Part shown: positions 4,280 through 10,504 of the stretch, one piece after another
How positions within the stretch are numbered: position 1 is the first letter of the stretch
Layout of the letters: each line of letters begins with the position of its first letter
Origin: Flavobacteriales bacterium
GTDB lineage: Bacteria; Bacteroidota; Bacteroidia; NS11-12g; UBA955
Length of the DNA: 40,871 nt
Direction: 5' to 3'
Assembly: GCA_947459165.1 (NCBI GenBank)
Contig: CANHCW010000003.1
Span: 1-40,871 of the forward strand
Position numbers and translations under genes: made by a program
Notes under the pieces: generated by a model
The model's input: the letters and a program-made list of their open reading frames with translations, nothing else
Databases searched by the model: none
Told to the model about the DNA's origin: nothing

Positions 4280-4381
4280 GGGGCGAAGATAAACAATACG
4301 AATTAATGACTGATGGCAAAGTACGCTTCAGCTTGCCCACAGCCGCTTGTGCTTCGAATTGCATGCCTTAAATTCGCAGTC

Positions 4382-6475
4382 ATGCCCGGTTTTCTCGATA
4401 CCCCCGTTGAGTTCCTCAAAGGCGTAGGACCGCAAAGGGCCGACGCACTGAAAACCGAACTGGGCATTCAAAGCATTGGCGATTTGCTCATGCATTATCC
4501 GGCAAGGCACGAAGACCGTTCCCGCATTTATAAAATTGCCGAATTAGGCAAAGCCGATGCGGGTGTTCAAGTTTCAGGTGTCATTACCCATATCGATTTA
4601 ATTGGCGCGGGGCCCGGAAGGCGCTTTGTGGCCAATATCAAAGACGAAACAGGCAATTTACAACTGGTTTGGTTTCAGGGAATTCCCTGGGTGGCCAAAT
4701 CCGTTAAACCCGGAGACCGCTATCTGGCCTTTGGTCGTTTAAACGACTACAAAGGCCGAATCAGCATGGCTCATCCTGAGTTGGAAAGCAACGCACAGGC
4801 AATCGCACCCAAGGGCTTGGTTCCAGTTTATCCGCTTACCGATGGCATGCGCCGCAAAAAGCTGGAAAACCGCTTCATGGTTCAAATGGTTCAAACCATT
4901 TTCAACGATCCCCGCTTCGATGTTCCCGAAAACCTGCCCCCTGCCCTACTCAAAGAATTTCAGCTTTTAGACAGAAAAACAGCCCTCAGGCAATTGCATT
5001 CGCCCTCCGATTTAAAAAGTCTGGAAAAAGCCCAGCACCGCCTCAAATTCGAGGAATTGTTTTATCTGCAACTCCGTCATCTTCAGTTAAAAACAAACCG
5101 CAACCGCACCATAAAAGGCCTGGTTTTTAGTGAAGTAGGAGATCATTTCAATACATTTTATAAGGAATTCCTGCCCTTTGAACTCACAGATGCACAAAAG
5201 AATGTCCTGCGCGAAATAAGGGCAGACATGCGCACCGGACGACAAATGAACAGGCTGTTGCAAGGCGATGTAGGCAGCGGCAAAACCATTGTGGCGCTGC
5301 TGAGTATGCTGCTGGCGGTTGATAATGGATATCAGGCCTGCGTTATGGCTCCTACCGAAATTCTGGCGGCACAGCATCACCTTAGCCTTAGCGAAATGCT
5401 TGAAGGCATGAACATTAAACCGGTGCTGCTTACAGGCAGCACCACAAAAAAAACAAGGAAAGCCATTCTCGAAAACCTAAAAAGTGGCGAAATTCCATTT
5501 CTCATTGGAACGCACGCCCTCATTGAACAGGATGTGGAGTTCAAGAATCTGGGCCTCGTAGTGATTGATGAACAGCACCGTTTCGGGGTGGCGCAAAGAG
5601 CTCGGTTGGCTTCAAAATCATCCACGCCTCCCCACATTCTGGTGATGACAGCAACACCCATTCCCCGCACACTGGCCATGACCGTTTACGGCGATTTGGA
5701 TGTTAGTGTGATTGATCGTTTGCCCGGAGGCAGAAAACCCATAATTACCGCTGCACGACACCATAGTACCCGCCCTTTGATAATGGATTTTCTGAAAAAG
5801 GAAATTGCAGCAGGACGGCAGGTTTACTATGTATTTCCACTCATCGAAGACAGTGACAAACTGGAGTTGCAAAGTCTTATGTCGGGTTACGACATGGTAA
5901 CAGAATTTCTTCCCACACCTGATTTTAAATACAGCATTGTGCATGGCCGCCTCAAACCCGATGAAAAGGAGAACGAAATGCACAAATTCCGCAATGGCTT
6001 AACCGATATAATGATTGCCACAACCGTGATTGAAGTGGGAGTGAATGTTCCCAATGCCACAGTGATGGTGATTGAAAATGCAGAAAGATTCGGGTTGGCA
6101 CAACTGCATCAGTTGCGCGGCAGGGTTGGGCGCGGCGGCAACCAAAGTTATTGTGTGCTGGTAGCAGGAGGCAAACTCAGCGAAAATGGGAAAAAACGCC
6201 TGGATACGATGGTGAGAACAACAGACGGGTTTGAAATCAGCAAGGTAGATTTGGAACTTCGCGGCCCGGGCGAAATGGATGGAACCCGTCAAAGCGGACT
6301 GCTGGAATTGAAACTGGCCGATATTCGATACGATGAAAACCTGCTTGTGCTGGCCCGCAACAAAGCCGAAGATTTACTGAACGACGATCCCCTGCTTATG
6401 AAACCTGAACATTTCGGGGTCCGGCAGGAATTGGCTAAAACCCCGCACAGAACGGTGTGGAGTAAAATTGCCTGA
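4382..6475 (+). CDS. recG: ATP-dependent DNA helicase RecG
   Basis: LKGVGP, GDVGSGKT, DEQHRFGV, MTATPIPRT, QLRGRVGRG; start placed at ATG 4382 after TAAATTCG (ORF track opens at 4313). Confidence 0.96.
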   Translation: MPGFLDTPVEFLKGVGPQRADALKTELGIQSIGDLLMHYPARHEDRSRIYKIAELGKADAGVQVSGVITHIDLIGAGPGRRFVANIKDETGNLQLVWFQGIPWVAKSVKPGDRYLAFGRLNDYKGRISMAHPELESNAQAIAPKGLVPVYPLTDGMRRKKLENRFMVQMVQTIFNDPRFDVPENLPPALLKEFQLLDRKTALRQLHSPSDLKSLEKAQHRLKFEELFYLQLRHLQLKTNRNRTIKGLVFSEVGDHFNTFYKEFLPFELTDAQKNVLREIRADMRTGRQMNRLLQGDVGSGKTIVALLSMLLAVDNGYQACVMAPTEILAAQHHLSLSEMLEGMNIKPVLLTGSTTKKTRKAILENLKSGEIPFLIGTHALIEQDVEFKNLGLVVIDEQHRFGVAQRARLASKSSTPPHILVMTATPIPRTLAMTVYGDLDVSVIDRLPGGRKPIITAARHHSTRPLIMDFLKKEIAAGRQVYYVFPLIEDSDKLELQSLMSGYDMVTEFLPTPDFKYSIVHGRLKPDEKENEMHKFRNGLTDIMIATTVIEVGVNVPNATVMVIENAERFGLAQLHQLRGRVGRGGNQSYCVLVAGGKLSENGKKRLDTMVRTTDGFEISKVDLELRGPGEMDGTRQSGLLELKLADIRYDENLLVLARNKAEDLLNDDPLLMKPEHFGVRQELAKTPHRTVWSKIA

Positions 6476-6599
6476 AGAATTATTTGATCTGATCGGTTCA
6501 GTTCAAAAATGTAAATGTTGCTATTTTATCTAAATTTTTACCTAATTATGTCGATACTTTGCGAAATTTTATATTATTGCACCTCAATATCTACAAGTT

Positions 6600-7517
6600 A
6601 TGTCAAAAGCACTTATTCTAAGCGGGGGCTCCATAAAGGGCGCATGGCAAGCCGGTGCTGTGAAGGCTATATTCGACAAGGGGCTAACTTTCGATGCCAT
6701 TCATGGCGTAAGCGTGGGCAGTTTGAACGGAAGTTTTATTTGCCAGGAGGCGGCAAAACAAAATCTGCCGCTTGAAACACTTGACTGGGGTCAACTGGGA
6801 GCCGCACTTGTGCAGTTCTGGAAAAACAACATCAAAGAGCCGAATAACATTGCTAAAGAGAGAAAATGGCATCAAACACTGATTTCGGTTTTGCGAAACA
6901 GATACAACGGCCTGGTTGATACCACACCCTTGCAGGAACTTGTTAAGCGCACCATCAATCCGGCCGTATTACAGCAATCACCCATCAAACTGACTGTAGG
7001 TGCAGTTAATTTGGCTAGCGGCAACAACGAGTTTCCCGGCCCGGGCGACCCCAATTTCATTGATTACCTGATTGCAAGCACAGCCATACCCATTATTATG
7101 CCGGTTCAATACATTGCAGGCAATAAAAACAGAGCCTACTTAGACGGAGGAATCCGGGATGTAGCTCCTATCGGAAAAGCTATAGATGCAGGCGCCGACG
7201 ACATTGTATGTGTGTTATGTCAAAGTCGCGAAACCACATCCAATTTCGATCCAGGAAATTTGATGAGTCTGGCCGACCGAGTGATGGAAATTGTGGTGAA
7301 CGAAATTGTAAACAACGATATCCAACGGGCACAGGAAATAAACAAGCAACTGGCTGCAGGTGGCAACATGGTAGGTAAAAAAGAGGTGAAAATTACGGTT
7401 ATCCGACCCAGACAACCTATCGGGCTGGATCTTTCCAATTTCAACTCAGGCCAAATTGAAGATACGATCAATTCCGGATACGATACGGCCAATTCCATAT
7501 TAGATGAGCAGTCATGA
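6600..7517 (+). CDS. Patatin-like phospholipase
   Basis: Gly-rich LSGGSIKG, nucleophile elbow GVSVG, ASTAIP, catalytic DGG; no signal peptide. Confidence 0.92.
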   Translation: MSKALILSGGSIKGAWQAGAVKAIFDKGLTFDAIHGVSVGSLNGSFICQEAAKQNLPLETLDWGQLGAALVQFWKNNIKEPNNIAKERKWHQTLISVLRNRYNGLVDTTPLQELVKRTINPAVLQQSPIKLTVGAVNLASGNNEFPGPGDPNFIDYLIASTAIPIIMPVQYIAGNKNRAYLDGGIRDVAPIGKAIDAGADDIVCVLCQSRETTSNFDPGNLMSLADRVMEIVVNEIVNNDIQRAQEINKQLAAGGNMVGKKEVKITVIRPRQPIGLDLSNFNSGQIEDTINSGYDTANSILDEQS

Positions 7518-8212
7518 GTAAAGACATAGATAAAAGAACCTACCGCAGAATCAGAACTGCCATCGGAATCATTGGCTTTATTCTTCCCCTGTCTCTTATC
7601 ATTGGTACTGAGGTTGCCTTTTTTCAAACAGACAAAAAGCCCTCAATCAGCCATTATTATTACTCCAATTTCCGCGAAATATTCACGGGATCTTTGTGCG
7701 CTGTTGGTCTGTTCATGCTGCTTTACAGGGGTTATGGCAATGCCAAATGGTGGAAAAACGACAAATTGCTTACCAACATTGCCGGATTAATGGCTTTCAT
7801 CGTGGCGTTTATACCCACAGAACCTAAAAGTGGAGACACACATTTGTACAGCTTAATTCCCAACTACCACCAAAATATGAACTGGATTCACCTAGGCAGT
7901 GCCTCCATTTTGTTCATCTCCTTTTCAATACTCTCTATTTTTGCTTTTACCGAAGGTTCCAAAATGGAAACTTCACCCGGAATGCTTCACGAAAATAAGA
8001 TTTACCGTTTTTGCGGTTTGGGCATAGTAGCAAGCATTCTGGTAATCTTTATTTTTATGAAAAATAATCGTTTGGAAAAAATGGTGCCGCATATGACTTT
8101 GTATATGGAAACTCTGGCCCTGTTTTTCTTCGCTACTTCGTGGCTGATTAAAGGAAGAGGCTTGGGAGACAAAGGGAAACTGGGCAGAATGATTTATTCC
8201 GAAAACAATTAA
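7514..8212 (+). CDS. Uncharacterised multi-pass membrane protein (~6 TM; DUF998/Frag1-DRAM-like fold suspected)
   Basis: About six hydrophobic segments, SISHYYYS loop motif after TM1, intramembrane His (WIHL) and Glu (YMETL); ATGA overlap with patatin stop. Family call is a recollection, not a search result. Confidence 0.7.
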   Translation: MSKDIDKRTYRRIRTAIGIIGFILPLSLIIGTEVAFFQTDKKPSISHYYYSNFREIFTGSLCAVGLFMLLYRGYGNAKWWKNDKLLTNIAGLMAFIVAFIPTEPKSGDTHLYSLIPNYHQNMNWIHLGSASILFISFSILSIFAFTEGSKMETSPGMLHENKIYRFCGLGIVASILVIFIFMKNNRLEKMVPHMTLYMETLALFFFATSWLIKGRGLGDKGKLGRMIYSENN

Positions 8213-8216
8213 ATAA

Positions 8217-8675
8217 ATGGAATGGCTGAATAGTATACGAGACCTGGCAGACATCATTGCGCGATTAACCGATTACAGCCGGGGGAACAAGGCAGTTCGG
8301 GCTCAACTGGTTAGAGAGTTAAAAATAAACCTGAAGGCATTTGAAGTGCAGCGAAGAAGGGCCAACACAGACTACGATCTGCTCTTAAACCAACTTTCAA
8401 ATAAGGTGATTCGCAAACAGTTTGATAGTGGCTACAGTTTTAGCCGGGTAAAAAACGGAACCATACAAGCCTACCATATTCACGACTTAAGGAATAGAAA
8501 ATACATTGGTAGAGACTGCAGGTGGATGTTTGAACATATTGATTTAAAGATTGTAGAGCTGCATCTTATGCGTGAATCGTTGGGCAGCTTAAACCATATT
8601 CAAGGGGTAAACATGGCTTTACAGTTTTCAAATCTCTACCACCGTATTCGCGTGCTTGCTGACTTTATTTGTTGA
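8217..8675 (+). CDS. Hypothetical protein (basic, predicted helical)
   Basis: 152-aa ORF starting 4 nt after the TM gene stop, same strand; no recognisable motif. Confidence 0.7.
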   Translation: MEWLNSIRDLADIIARLTDYSRGNKAVRAQLVRELKINLKAFEVQRRRANTDYDLLLNQLSNKVIRKQFDSGYSFSRVKNGTIQAYHIHDLRNRKYIGRDCRWMFEHIDLKIVELHLMRESLGSLNHIQGVNMALQFSNLYHRIRVLADFIC

Positions 8676-8805
8676 TGTAAGGCAGATATTTCCGGGTTTC
8701 AATCCAGTCTGTTTTACTCATTTGCGGCTGTAATTCTTAGACGATCAAACCGGCTTTTTCATCGATACATTTGAATAAGGTATTTTCTCTTTAAAAAACA
8801 TAATA

Positions 8806-8813
8806 TACCTTCG
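8806..8813 (+). promoter_or_regulatory. -7 promoter element for the riboswitch-containing transcript
   Basis: TACCTTCG, identical to the element upstream of the 33.3-kb ATPase; implies a TSS near 8818, exactly where P1 starts. Confidence 0.55.
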
Positions 8814-8817
8814 AACC

Positions 8818-8912
8818 ATCATCAAGATTACGCCAAGTGCGCCAACCGAGTTCGACTTACCACGGTGGCAAAATGATGAGGACAAATCCGTCAAAACCCA
8901 AATACAAAGTCG
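8818..8912 (+). ncRNA. SAM-I/IV-like riboswitch aptamer (variant)
   Basis: P1 UCAUC(8819-23)/GAUGA(8875-79); J1/2 AAGA; P3 GCC-AA-CCG(8841-48)/CGG-U-GGC(8863-69); P5 GGA-CAAA-UCC(8880-89); pseudoknot CGACUU(8853-58)/AAGUCG(8907-12). Confidence 0.7.
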
Positions 8913-8951
8913 TGATTTTGATTTGATACAATGATTGTAATTTTTGACATG

Positions 8952-9003
8952 ACGGCATTCGACTTAGTCGCCATAAAAAGGGATTGAAGTCGATTGCCGT
9001 TTT
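8952..9003 (+). terminator. Terminator-like hairpin of the riboswitch expression platform
   Basis: ACGGCATTCGACTT (8952-65) pairs 13/14 with AAGTCGATTGCCGT (8987-9000), followed by a short T run. Confidence 0.55.
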
Positions 9004-9025
9004 ATCCCTAATTTCACGGCTGTAA

Positions 9026-9766
9026 ATGAGCAGGTTGTTTTTTGAACTGGGCAGGTACATTCTGTTTATGCGCAGTATGTTTTTCAAGCCGGAACGATTC
9101 AGGGTATTTTTGGAAAGAACCATTCACGAAATGAACAACATCGGGGTGGGTTCTTTGGGAATTGTAACCATTATTTCGGTGTTTGTGGGTGCTGTAACCA
9201 CCCTACAAACCGCATATCAGCTTGTTTCACCCCTGATTCCTCTGAAAGTCATCGGCACCATTGTTTCCGACAGCTCACTGCTTGAATTTGCACCTACCAT
9301 CACCTGCCTGGTACTTGCCGGCAAAGTGGGCGCAAACATTGCTTCAGAAGTGGGCAACATGAGGGTAACCGAACAAATTGATGCGCTGGAAGTGATGGGC
9401 ATTAACAGCAGCGGCTTTTTGGGTTTGCCCAAAATCATTGCCGGGGTAATTATGATTCCCATGCTAATTATCATTGCCAACTTTTTAATGATAGGCGGCG
9501 GAATTCTGGCGGCAAGACTCACCGACCTAATGCCACCCAATGAATTCATTCAGGGAGCCAGAGAAACTTTCAAATTGTTTACTGTTTCAGTATCTATGAC
9601 CAAAGCGCTGGTATTTGCTTTCATTATAACAAGTATGAGCACATACGAAGGTTACTATACTGAAGGCGGTGCACTGGAAGTAGGAGAAGCCGGAACACGC
9701 GCCGTAACCCGTGCCTGTGTGCTGATTCTTTTTTCCGATTTCATCATTGCCAAACTAATGCTGTAA
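9026..9766 (+). CDS. mlaE: MlaE family ABC transporter permease
   Basis: EFAPTITCLVLAGKVGANIASEVGNMRVTEQIDALEVMG and GGALEVGEAGT signatures. Confidence 0.92.
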   Translation: MSRLFFELGRYILFMRSMFFKPERFRVFLERTIHEMNNIGVGSLGIVTIISVFVGAVTTLQTAYQLVSPLIPLKVIGTIVSDSSLLEFAPTITCLVLAGKVGANIASEVGNMRVTEQIDALEVMGINSSGFLGLPKIIAGVIMIPMLIIIANFLMIGGGILAARLTDLMPPNEFIQGARETFKLFTVSVSMTKALVFAFIITSMSTYEGYYTEGGALEVGEAGTRAVTRACVLILFSDFIIAKLML

Positions 9767-9769
9767 ACA

Positions 9770-10504
9770 ATGATTGAACTGGTAAATCTCAACAAAACTT
9801 TCAGAGACAAACAGGTGTTGTTTGACATCAACGCAAGGTTTGAACCCGGATTAACCAACCTGGTAATTGGTGCCAGTGGCGGGGGCAAATCGGTATTGTT
9901 GAAATGTATGGTTGGCCTGATTAAACCCGAAAGCGGAAGCATCAATTACGACGGGCGCGATTTTGTGCATTTGCCTTATGAGCAGGTGCGTGAAATCAGG
10001 CGAGAAATTGGCATGCTCTTTCAGGGAACGGCCTTATTTGATTCTCTCACGGTGGAAGAGAATGTGGAATTCCCTTTAAAAATGTTCAGTAAAATGGCTC
10101 CTTCGGAACGAAAAGACAGGGTGAATTTCTGCCTCAGCAAAGTGGGATTGGAAAATGCCAACAGCAAATTTCCTGCTGAAATTTCAGGAGGGATGAAAAA
10201 ACGGGTAGGTATTGCACGCGCCATTGCACTGGAAACCAAATACCTTTTCTGCGACGAACCCAACAGCGGACTTGACCCTATAACCAGCCGCAGGATTGAC
10301 GAATTGCTGCACGATATTACCCGCGAATTCAATATCACCACCATCATCAACAGCCATGATATGAAAACGGTTTATGACATTGGCGAATCCATCACTTTCA
10401 TCTATCAGGGTAAAATATGGTGGCAGGGTCATCGCAAACAAATTGACGAAACGCGCAAACACAACCCCGAACTGGATGCCTTTATATCGGCGAGTCAGTT
10501 TTGA
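9770..10504 (+). CDS. mlaF: MlaF family ABC transporter ATP-binding protein
   Basis: Walker A GASGGGKS, signature ISGGMKKRV, Walker B FCDEP; directly after mlaE. Confidence 0.9.
   Translation: MIELVNLNKTFRDKQVLFDINARFEPGLTNLVIGASGGGKSVLLKCMVGLIKPESGSINYDGRDFVHLPYEQVREIRREIGMLFQGTALFDSLTVEENVEFPLKMFSKMAPSERKDRVNFCLSKVGLENANSKFPAEISGGMKKRVGIARAIALETKYLFCDEPNSGLDPITSRRIDELLHDITREFNITTIINSHDMKTVYDIGESITFIYQGKIWWQGHRKQIDETRKHNPELDAFISASQF

Follow-up and report, generated by a model that had tools for sequence, protein, structure and literature searches.

In the stretch of DNA analysed here (the window, 40,871 nucleotides of a Flavobacteriales genome), a SAM-I/IV riboswitch aptamer stands between recG and a pair of genes for an Mla-type ABC transporter, at the right end of an insertion. 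The source is a metagenome-assembled genome (MAG) of 2.28 Mb, 85% complete and in 242 contigs. The features are listed below, all on the plus strand.

4313..6475 (+): recG, the native left neighbour (Pfam RecG_wedge, DEAD, Helicase_C and RecG_dom3_C; C-terminus and stop context match same-genus genomes)
6476..~8993 (+): strain-specific insertion of ~2.5 kb, with three genes followed by the aptamer and the greater part of the hairpin
6600-7517 (+): patatin-like gene, in the insertion
7514-8212 (+): ORF without a family, 232 aa, in the insertion
8217-8675 (+): ORF without a family, 152 aa, in the insertion
8806..8813 (+): TACCTTCG, candidate Bacteroidota-type -7 promoter box for the riboswitch transcript, in register with TAATTTCG/TATATTTG of the closest aptamers
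8814..8908 (+): SAM-I/IV aptamer (P1, weak P2, P3, P5), an RF01725 match with helices backed by covariation in 78 relatives
8819-8823 with 8875-8879 (+): P1, from the cmscan alignment, AUC/GAU present
J1/2 (+): AAGA, aligned to the RF01725 consensus
8828-8840 (+): P2, short, of the right length and position for the family
8841-8851 with 8859-8869 (+): P3 with the CAACC/GGUG internal loop, aligned to the RF01725 consensus
8881-8883 with 8890-8892 (+): P5, three pairs plus an A.C, directly after the 3' strand of P1
8907..8912 (+): 3' tail AAGUCG, pseudoknot partner of L3 CGACUU (8853-8858), six Watson-Crick pairs
8951..9005 (+): 20-bp imperfect hairpin (8951-9001) followed by UUUAU, a probable intrinsic terminator on the evidence of folding and shuffles
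9009..9016 (+): TAATTTCA, a -7-like box kept from what is probably mlaE's native promoter region (CTAATTTTACCGCT kept in 10/11 same-genus genomes)
9026..9766 (+): mlaE, permease (Pfam PF02405, 216 bits; 78-83% DNA identity to same-genus orthologues)
9770..10504 (+): ABC ATPase, MlaF-like by position (Pfam ABC_tran)

An earlier note on this DNA had placed the aptamer upstream of mlaE and an ABC ATPase, and Pfam agrees on both genes (PF02405 for MlaE, ABC_tran for the ATPase). The ATPase falls below every NCBIfam cut-off (MetN, 167 against 499.7; MlaF, 143 against 441). Near the window start, a Fic/DOC-family protein unrelated to the riboswitch is encoded at 278-1441.

What kind of aptamer is this? 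A cmscan of all 40,871 bases on both strands returned SAM-I/IV (RF01725) at 8814-8908 (+) as the sole Rfam match (46.2 bits against a gathering score of 41.1; E=1.5e-4; model positions 1-99 of 99). This Infernal comparison with Rfam, which the earlier note had proposed, bears out its call of a SAM-I/IV-type aptamer: the match is full-length and above the gathering score, and the listed structural elements are all present. A search of the whole genome brings up no second RF01725 copy (E=2.1e-6 for this one), and 14 control genomes gave no match.

The note went further and described a minimal variant, and here the family comparison disagrees. A motif-pattern search of one-genome-per-species contigs gave 115 matching stretches, of which 80 loci (81 aptamers) were examined; these 81 aptamers and 13 from related genomes were reduced to an alignment of 78 unique sequences, among the matches listed. 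The window RNA keeps all 31 invariant and all 9 nearly invariant columns of this alignment, in which about 30 columns were fixed by the search pattern, and by its sequence it is a canonical RF01725 member rather than a minimal variant. The RF01725 consensus itself reads gcCAACC...GGUGgc, lacks P4 and has a simple P2 hairpin. P4 is absent from the window aptamer just as it is from the model, so that its absence is not unusual, and the GCCAACC/GGUGGC that had been taken for a compensatory change is identical to the family consensus. Likewise, P5 has three pairs plus an A.C in 53 of the 78 relatives. When P1, P2, P3 and P5 are modelled on the 78 sequences, 91.5% of cells are paired, against 23-54% with the partners slid, and the covariation score of the alignment was reached by none of 500 shuffles; the test of covariation among homologues that had been suggested thus supports the helices.

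The pseudoknot between L3 and the 3' tail that the note had described is also borne out, with six Watson-Crick pairs between CGACUU and AAGUCG. A complementarity of 6 bp was equalled by four of 200 shuffled tails. A crude family-wide test gave no separation (mean 3.58 bp against 3.27 bp in shuffles), because most members have a 4-bp pseudoknot only. The 6-bp pseudoknot of the window is stronger than those of its nearest relatives, a point against regarding the switch as an orphan.

The sole allele-specific oddity of the window aptamer, judged from its alignment, is the weakness of P2. The helix had been called vestigial; its short length is the family norm, 13-15 nt in 69 of the 78 unique relatives (among the matches listed), but its weak pairing is specific to the window allele. 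In the class, P2 is a hairpin of about 4-5 bp; in the window allele the 5' arm has UUAC in place of GCAC, which yields U.C, U.G, A-U and C-G, without the outer two pairs of the RF01725 P2. In isolation this P2 folds with a dG of 0, against a family median of -3.8 kcal/mol, a value of 0 being found in 3/78 sequences. P1 with four of five pairs occurs in 7/78 relatives and a weak P2 in 3/78, and one such aptamer precedes metK, which argues against reading these defects as the mark of an orphan. The window aptamer may well still bind SAM.

With RF01725 the window RNA shares the P1-P2-P3 junction, J1/2, the P3 internal loop, the lack of P4, P5, the L3-tail pseudoknot and, as far as length and position go, an unbranched P2. 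A crystal structure of a SAM-I/IV aptamer was reportedly described by Trausch and colleagues in 2014. The window aptamer departs from the class in its setting, on a strain-specific insertion ahead of mlaEF and not at a Met/SAM gene. The P4 of SAM-I and its kink-turn P2 with pseudoknot are missing from the window aptamer, as are the split P2a/P2b and first pseudoknot of SAM-IV. In the description of the class by Weinberg et al. 2010 (PMC2864571), SAM-I/IV RNAs were introduced, under the name 'SAM-I-IV-variant', as variants of SAM-I and SAM-IV without the P2 internal loop. The structural comparison in Zhang et al. 2019 (PMC6890682) gives SAM-IV no P4 and a pseudoknot linked to P5, and SAM-I/IV a P2 that is not separated; the ligand-binding core of SAM-IV (RF00634) and SAM-I (RF00162), clan CL00012, as treated there, is common to the window aptamer.

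How did this aptamer come to lie before mlaE? In a BLAST search with window positions 8217-9766, homology to same-genus genomes begins at query position 777-788, that is, window 8993-9004, in 11/11 of them, ~30 nt before the mlaE ATG. In eight of these 11 genomes recG is followed after ~55 nt by mlaE; two carry a divergent gene upstream of mlaE, and one has another arrangement. Together, the start of same-genus homology and the adjacency of recG and mlaE identify 6476 to ~8993 as a strain-specific insertion, with the riboswitch at its right end. The insertion starts immediately 3' of the recG stop codon and is missing from 11/11 same-genus genomes, none of which has an RF01725 match (0/11, in a search with stricter filters). 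A DNA match to 6476-9025 was sought in 190 other genomes of the order and found only for ~80 nt of the aptamer, in other genera. GC content is 0.38-0.43 inside the insertion and 0.45-0.51 in the flanks, and no terminal direct or inverted repeats were found to bound it. A metagenome contig of 2,298 bp (L161) runs from the patatin gene through the mlaE start with the same arrangement and 99.35% identity, and the junction is therefore not an artefact of assembly.

The cargo of the insertion gives few clues. By tblastn, its three proteins match nothing at the 93 riboswitch loci. Eight of 400 other genomes of the class, in other families, encode homologues of the 152-aa protein (32-40% identity), with no patatin, 232-aa protein or aptamer near them. 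The patatin-like protein has weak PADLOC/CBASS phospholipase-effector matches (E ~4e-5 to 4e-6, best 4e-6) far below the cut-offs; the insertion proteins have no other PADLOC match, no PHROG match and no informative Atlas match. As an observation in its own right, 6600-8675 may be a defence-type island.

The closest aptamers, 80-83% identical over ~80 nt, come from a single further genus within the family (G028, G134, G135), and five metagenome loci (L157-L160, L162) are further close relatives. The similarity extends into the promoter region, where their TAATTTCG/TATATTTG aligns with TACCTTCG of the window. The Bacteroidota -7 promoter consensus is TAnnTTTG, and we regard TACCTTCG at 8806-8813 as the putative promoter box of the riboswitch transcript. 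The sister-genus aptamers have the same P1 and P3 as the window and a homologous promoter region, but their P2 is intact (GCAC/GUGC), the linker from P5 to the pseudoknot strand is ~6 nt shorter than in the window, and the aptamer tail overlaps the start codon of a ~95-aa gene without known function, which implies translational control there; the window has a long hairpin in place of that arrangement, and the query used did not find that gene in the genome of the window. A relic of the small 'REGD...GIVGVHAQG' gene after the aptamer was considered and rejected (local alignment of 8913-8994 scoring 18 against 16.1 +/- 2.1 when shuffled, p=0.24). In the same genome, metK has an upstream spacer of 53 nt and no riboswitch at E<=1. 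No SAM-I (RF00162) was found in this genome (85% complete), and no SAM-II either, the latter a weak blank given that the search matched no control genome. These results suggest a lineage otherwise without SAM riboswitches. The same aptamer subtype had 0 matches in viral contigs.

L161 offers a second allele, differing from the window at 15 of 2,298 positions. Five differences fall in the three insertion genes (three synonymous, one T->S, one inside a stop codon) and one, synonymous, at the mlaE start, making six coding differences; six lie in 8676-8813, three in the aptamer (8821, 8828, 8829) and none in 8909-9025. In the window allele, GC->UU in the P2 5' arm replaces G-C and C-G with U.C and U.G, at a helix whose outermost pair is kept in 76/78. 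In the L161 allele, A->U creates a U.U at the centre of P1, a pair kept in 77/78 relatives. With the sister-genus aptamers as outgroup to set the derived state of each change, both pair-breaking changes are derived and uncompensated, and neither allele has both helices intact. Both alleles nevertheless score ~46 bits (46.1 for L161), above the gathering score, contrary to what an orphan would suggest. Differences are denser across 8676-8908 (9 in 233 nt) than in coding sequence (6 in 1948; Fisher p=4e-6) or in 8909-9025 (0 in 117; p=0.03). Eleven of the 15 fall within the 170 nt of 8660-8829, from the end of the 152-aa gene to P2 (binomial p=4e-10), and this cluster may reflect recombination of a patch, as opposed to neutral decay, or a hypervariable spot.

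Downstream of the aptamer, the hairpin at 8951-9001 begins ~40 nt after the pseudoknot tail and ends 25 nt before the mlaE ATG. Its dG is -26.6 kcal/mol (z=-5.8), and none of 200 shuffles was as stable. In the full leader, the stem has a pair probability of 0.99-1.0 whether the aptamer is enforced or free, and the thermodynamic models yield no competing anti-terminator in the MFE, centroid or ensemble. In these models, then, neither a mutually exclusive terminator and anti-terminator nor a structure that sequesters the start site is coupled to the aptamer; kinetic switching may still occur. A consensus terminator scan missed the hairpin because its loop and bulges exceed the scan's rules, and a sigma-70 promoter scan gave nothing useful, Bacteroidota promoters being outside its scope. 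No copy of the hairpin exists elsewhere in its own genome, and the idea that it is a repeat or a mobile element was rejected on this single copy and on the lack of terminal repeats at the insertion. A homologous expression platform (8909-8993 type) is absent from 93 loci and 6 metagenome loci, the same-species contig excepted. An 18-codon ORF lies within the platform (8932-8988).

The promoter of mlaE itself appears to have survived in part. In 10/11 congeners, CTAATTTTACCGCT lies directly upstream of the ATG; the window form is CTAATTTCACGGCT (9008-9021). In two congeners the gene upstream of mlaE is divergent, and their mlaE promoter must sit in the short spacer; the -7 box of mlaE itself probably lies in the CTAATTTTACCGCT segment. 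The insertion has replaced the stretch where a -33 element would be expected, and mlaEF may on that account now depend partly on upstream transcription, a point against the orphan reading. A metatranscriptome search found only two runs, with a 0.05 share of query words, and one contig of 192 nt (99.5% identical, depth 2.4) that spans 8840-9031, from the aptamer through the hairpin to the mlaE start codon; the X2 metatranscriptome contigs (90-95% identical, from relatives) were left out. The contig is a weak hint of read-through, as such contigs have neither strand nor ends and DNA carry-over is possible.

Is the neighbourhood of mlaE a recurrent home for SAM-I/IV aptamers? The earlier note had proposed listing the genes downstream of homologues, and by tblastn MlaE is found at 0/93 other SAM-I/IV loci, among the matches listed. 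A literature search likewise found no relevant work joining a SAM riboswitch and MlaE. In a context scan of 90 ORFs (for each of 81 aptamers, the first two with 75 aa or more that start no further than 700 nt beyond it), metK-like genes stand at 17/81 aptamers and Cys/Met PLP enzymes at 2/81, or 19/81 with a Met/SAM context (80 of the 115 matches). Most other contexts are genes without a Pfam or PHROG family, several of them recurrent: a 7-member group (mostly ~260 aa), families of ~240-270 aa (4 loci) and ~110 aa (4), and two of ~90 aa (3 each). Among the matches listed, contexts other than Met are the rule for SAM-I/IV aptamers in this clade.

Some of these contexts show structure of their own. 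In a complete genome of the same order (G051, contig C1) five near-identical SAM-I/IV aptamers (L007, L010, L012, L013, L014) each precede by 55 nt a small ORF (86-126 aa) and then an ORF of ~150-170 aa, as if a cassette had multiplied. Seven other loci (L055, L062, L070, L082, L083, L088, L091) have a common terminator, GGGCGGUAU...AUACUGCCC plus a U-run, 130-210 nt after the aptamer. The next gene is thioredoxin-like in five of the seven (four by Pfam), with other genes in L082 and L088. Between the aptamer and that terminator lies a small ORF, intact (L043, L072) or degenerate. The seven shared-terminator loci look like further orphaned switches. In the metK leaders L004, L005, L009 and L011, a GGTCTCGTG-like element with a T-run is seen by eye ~120-150 nt beyond the aptamer. 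Its complementarity to the aptamer 5' CACGAGACC (J1/2 to the P2 5' arm) suggests a long-range expression platform in those leaders.

What, then, is the SAM-I/IV aptamer doing upstream of mlaEF? On balance we favour a horizontally acquired stray, a hitch-hiking cassette whose transcript ends at the hairpin, over an evolved SAM control of lipid transport. The switch stands before mlaEF only because it arrived on foreign DNA, and is for that reason probably a stray and not a new control. We propose that a canonical SAM-I/IV aptamer entered the species inside the ~2.5-kb horizontally acquired insertion between recG and mlaE. The riboswitch transcript would start from its own promoter-like box and end mostly at ~9003, upstream of mlaE, and mlaE would still have the -7-like box that belongs to its native, conserved promoter. 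The switch would then be a detached promoter-aptamer-terminator cassette without its original cargo gene, and any effect on mlaEF would be incidental read-through. Among the three explanations offered in the earlier note (SAM-linked control, shifted ligand specificity and an orphan switch), the orphan fits best, with the amendment that the switch was not stranded by gene loss in place but came with the insertion. The link between aptamer and mlaE is not conserved in relatives, being seen in 0/11 congeners and at 0/93 loci. The stray reading is also favoured by the lack of other SAM riboswitches in this genome, by closest aptamers that belong to another genus and another gene, by a hairpin that forms in every model, by the separate pair-breaking changes of the two alleles and by the density of differences across 8676-8908.

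The main rival, possible but unlikely, is that the acquired riboswitch now attenuates transcription of mlaEF in a SAM-OFF manner. In the presence of SAM, the aptamer and pseudoknot would retain their strands and the 8951-9001 hairpin would terminate; without SAM, the tail or the aptamer 3' half would pair with the hairpin left arm and polymerase would read into mlaE. The order of promoter box, aptamer, U-run hairpin and ATG is the classical layout of a transcriptional riboswitch, and a U-run hairpin between aptamer and first ORF is also present in 15/80 relatives, among the matches listed. The left arm (8958-8966) contains an exact second copy of the L3 9-mer UUCGACUUA, and the right arm a further AAGUCG, repeats that would allow a partner-swap switch and so run counter to the orphan; the chance of such a 9-mer repeat, estimated by hand, is ~0.08. 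A duplex of the aptamer 3' half with the left arm, which would also count against the orphan, is possible at -17.7 kcal/mol. To these can be added the absence of allele differences across 8909-9025, the replaced -33 part of the native mlaE promoter, and the RNA-library contig that bridges 8840-9031. Against attenuation, every thermodynamic model gives the terminator a probability of 0.99 or more, and the pairing of tail with left arm comprises 6 bp only; by our estimate rather than by computation, 6-mer complementarities as short as these are what chance would produce. A helix-breaking change is present in each allele, the SAM-I/IV-MlaE link is found at 0/93 other loci and the switch in 0/11 congeners, and mlaE has retained its -7-like box. 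RNA-library contigs may contain DNA and show neither strand nor transcript ends, and that one low-depth metatranscriptome contig is the sole positive support for SAM-linked control of mlaEF.

A broader version of this regulatory idea, which we think quite unlikely, is that a promoter plus SAM-I/IV cassette is mobile among freshwater Bacteroidota and was recently wired before mlaEF, with SAM gating read-through into the Mla-type operon. If true, a SAM-gated mlaEF would be regulatory rewiring by riboswitch transfer caught in the act.

We consider it improbable that the element is a stand-alone RNA of ~185 nt (~8818 to 9003) that acts in trans, titrates SAM or controls the 18-codon ORF at 8932-8988. 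SAM riboswitch-derived sRNAs of Listeria act in trans, and SreA and SreB are orphan or trans-acting SAM riboswitch elements; the window element resembles them in its make-up, an aptamer and then a terminator, from which a short independent RNA can arise. Its promoter-like box and its strong terminator enclose no gene, and several relatives resemble aptamer-plus-terminator units with degenerate or no ORFs. Unlike SreA and SreB, however, the window element has no evidence of a trans target; neither target nor conservation was found, the platform is without a homologue in 93 loci, and local alignment (p=0.24) does not link the 18-codon ORF to the small gene found in the closest relatives.

The shifted ligand specificity suggested by the earlier note, here a variant aptamer for SAH or another analogue serving a non-Met regulon, is very improbable: it draws on a non-Met gene context and a weak P2 and nothing else, but the core positions do not deviate, the aptamer agrees with the Rfam core and with each of the 31 invariant and 9 nearly invariant columns, and the P2 change is missing from the sister allele L161. 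Chance resemblance or an assembly artefact, conceivable in a fragmented MAG of 242 contigs, can be dismissed almost entirely in view of the genome-search E-value (2e-6, with 0/14 control genomes matching) and of the right junction, which is also seen in an independent metagenome contig and in the RNA-library contig.

Finally, what would the stray cassette that we favour mean for the biology of riboswitches? As an ordinary member of RF01725, the window aptamer teaches little that is new about riboswitch structure. It is of value as a natural, dated case of a promoter-aptamer-hairpin cassette moved horizontally into an unrelated locus, and its near-identical alleles with different helix-breaking changes bear on the spread, capture and decay of riboswitches. 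The locus also carries a caution, in that adjacency alone is no basis for linking a ligand to a gene. Beyond this locus, the family-less genes that follow most SAM-I/IV aptamers of the subtype in Bacteroidota MAGs could point to unexplored SAM-linked biology.
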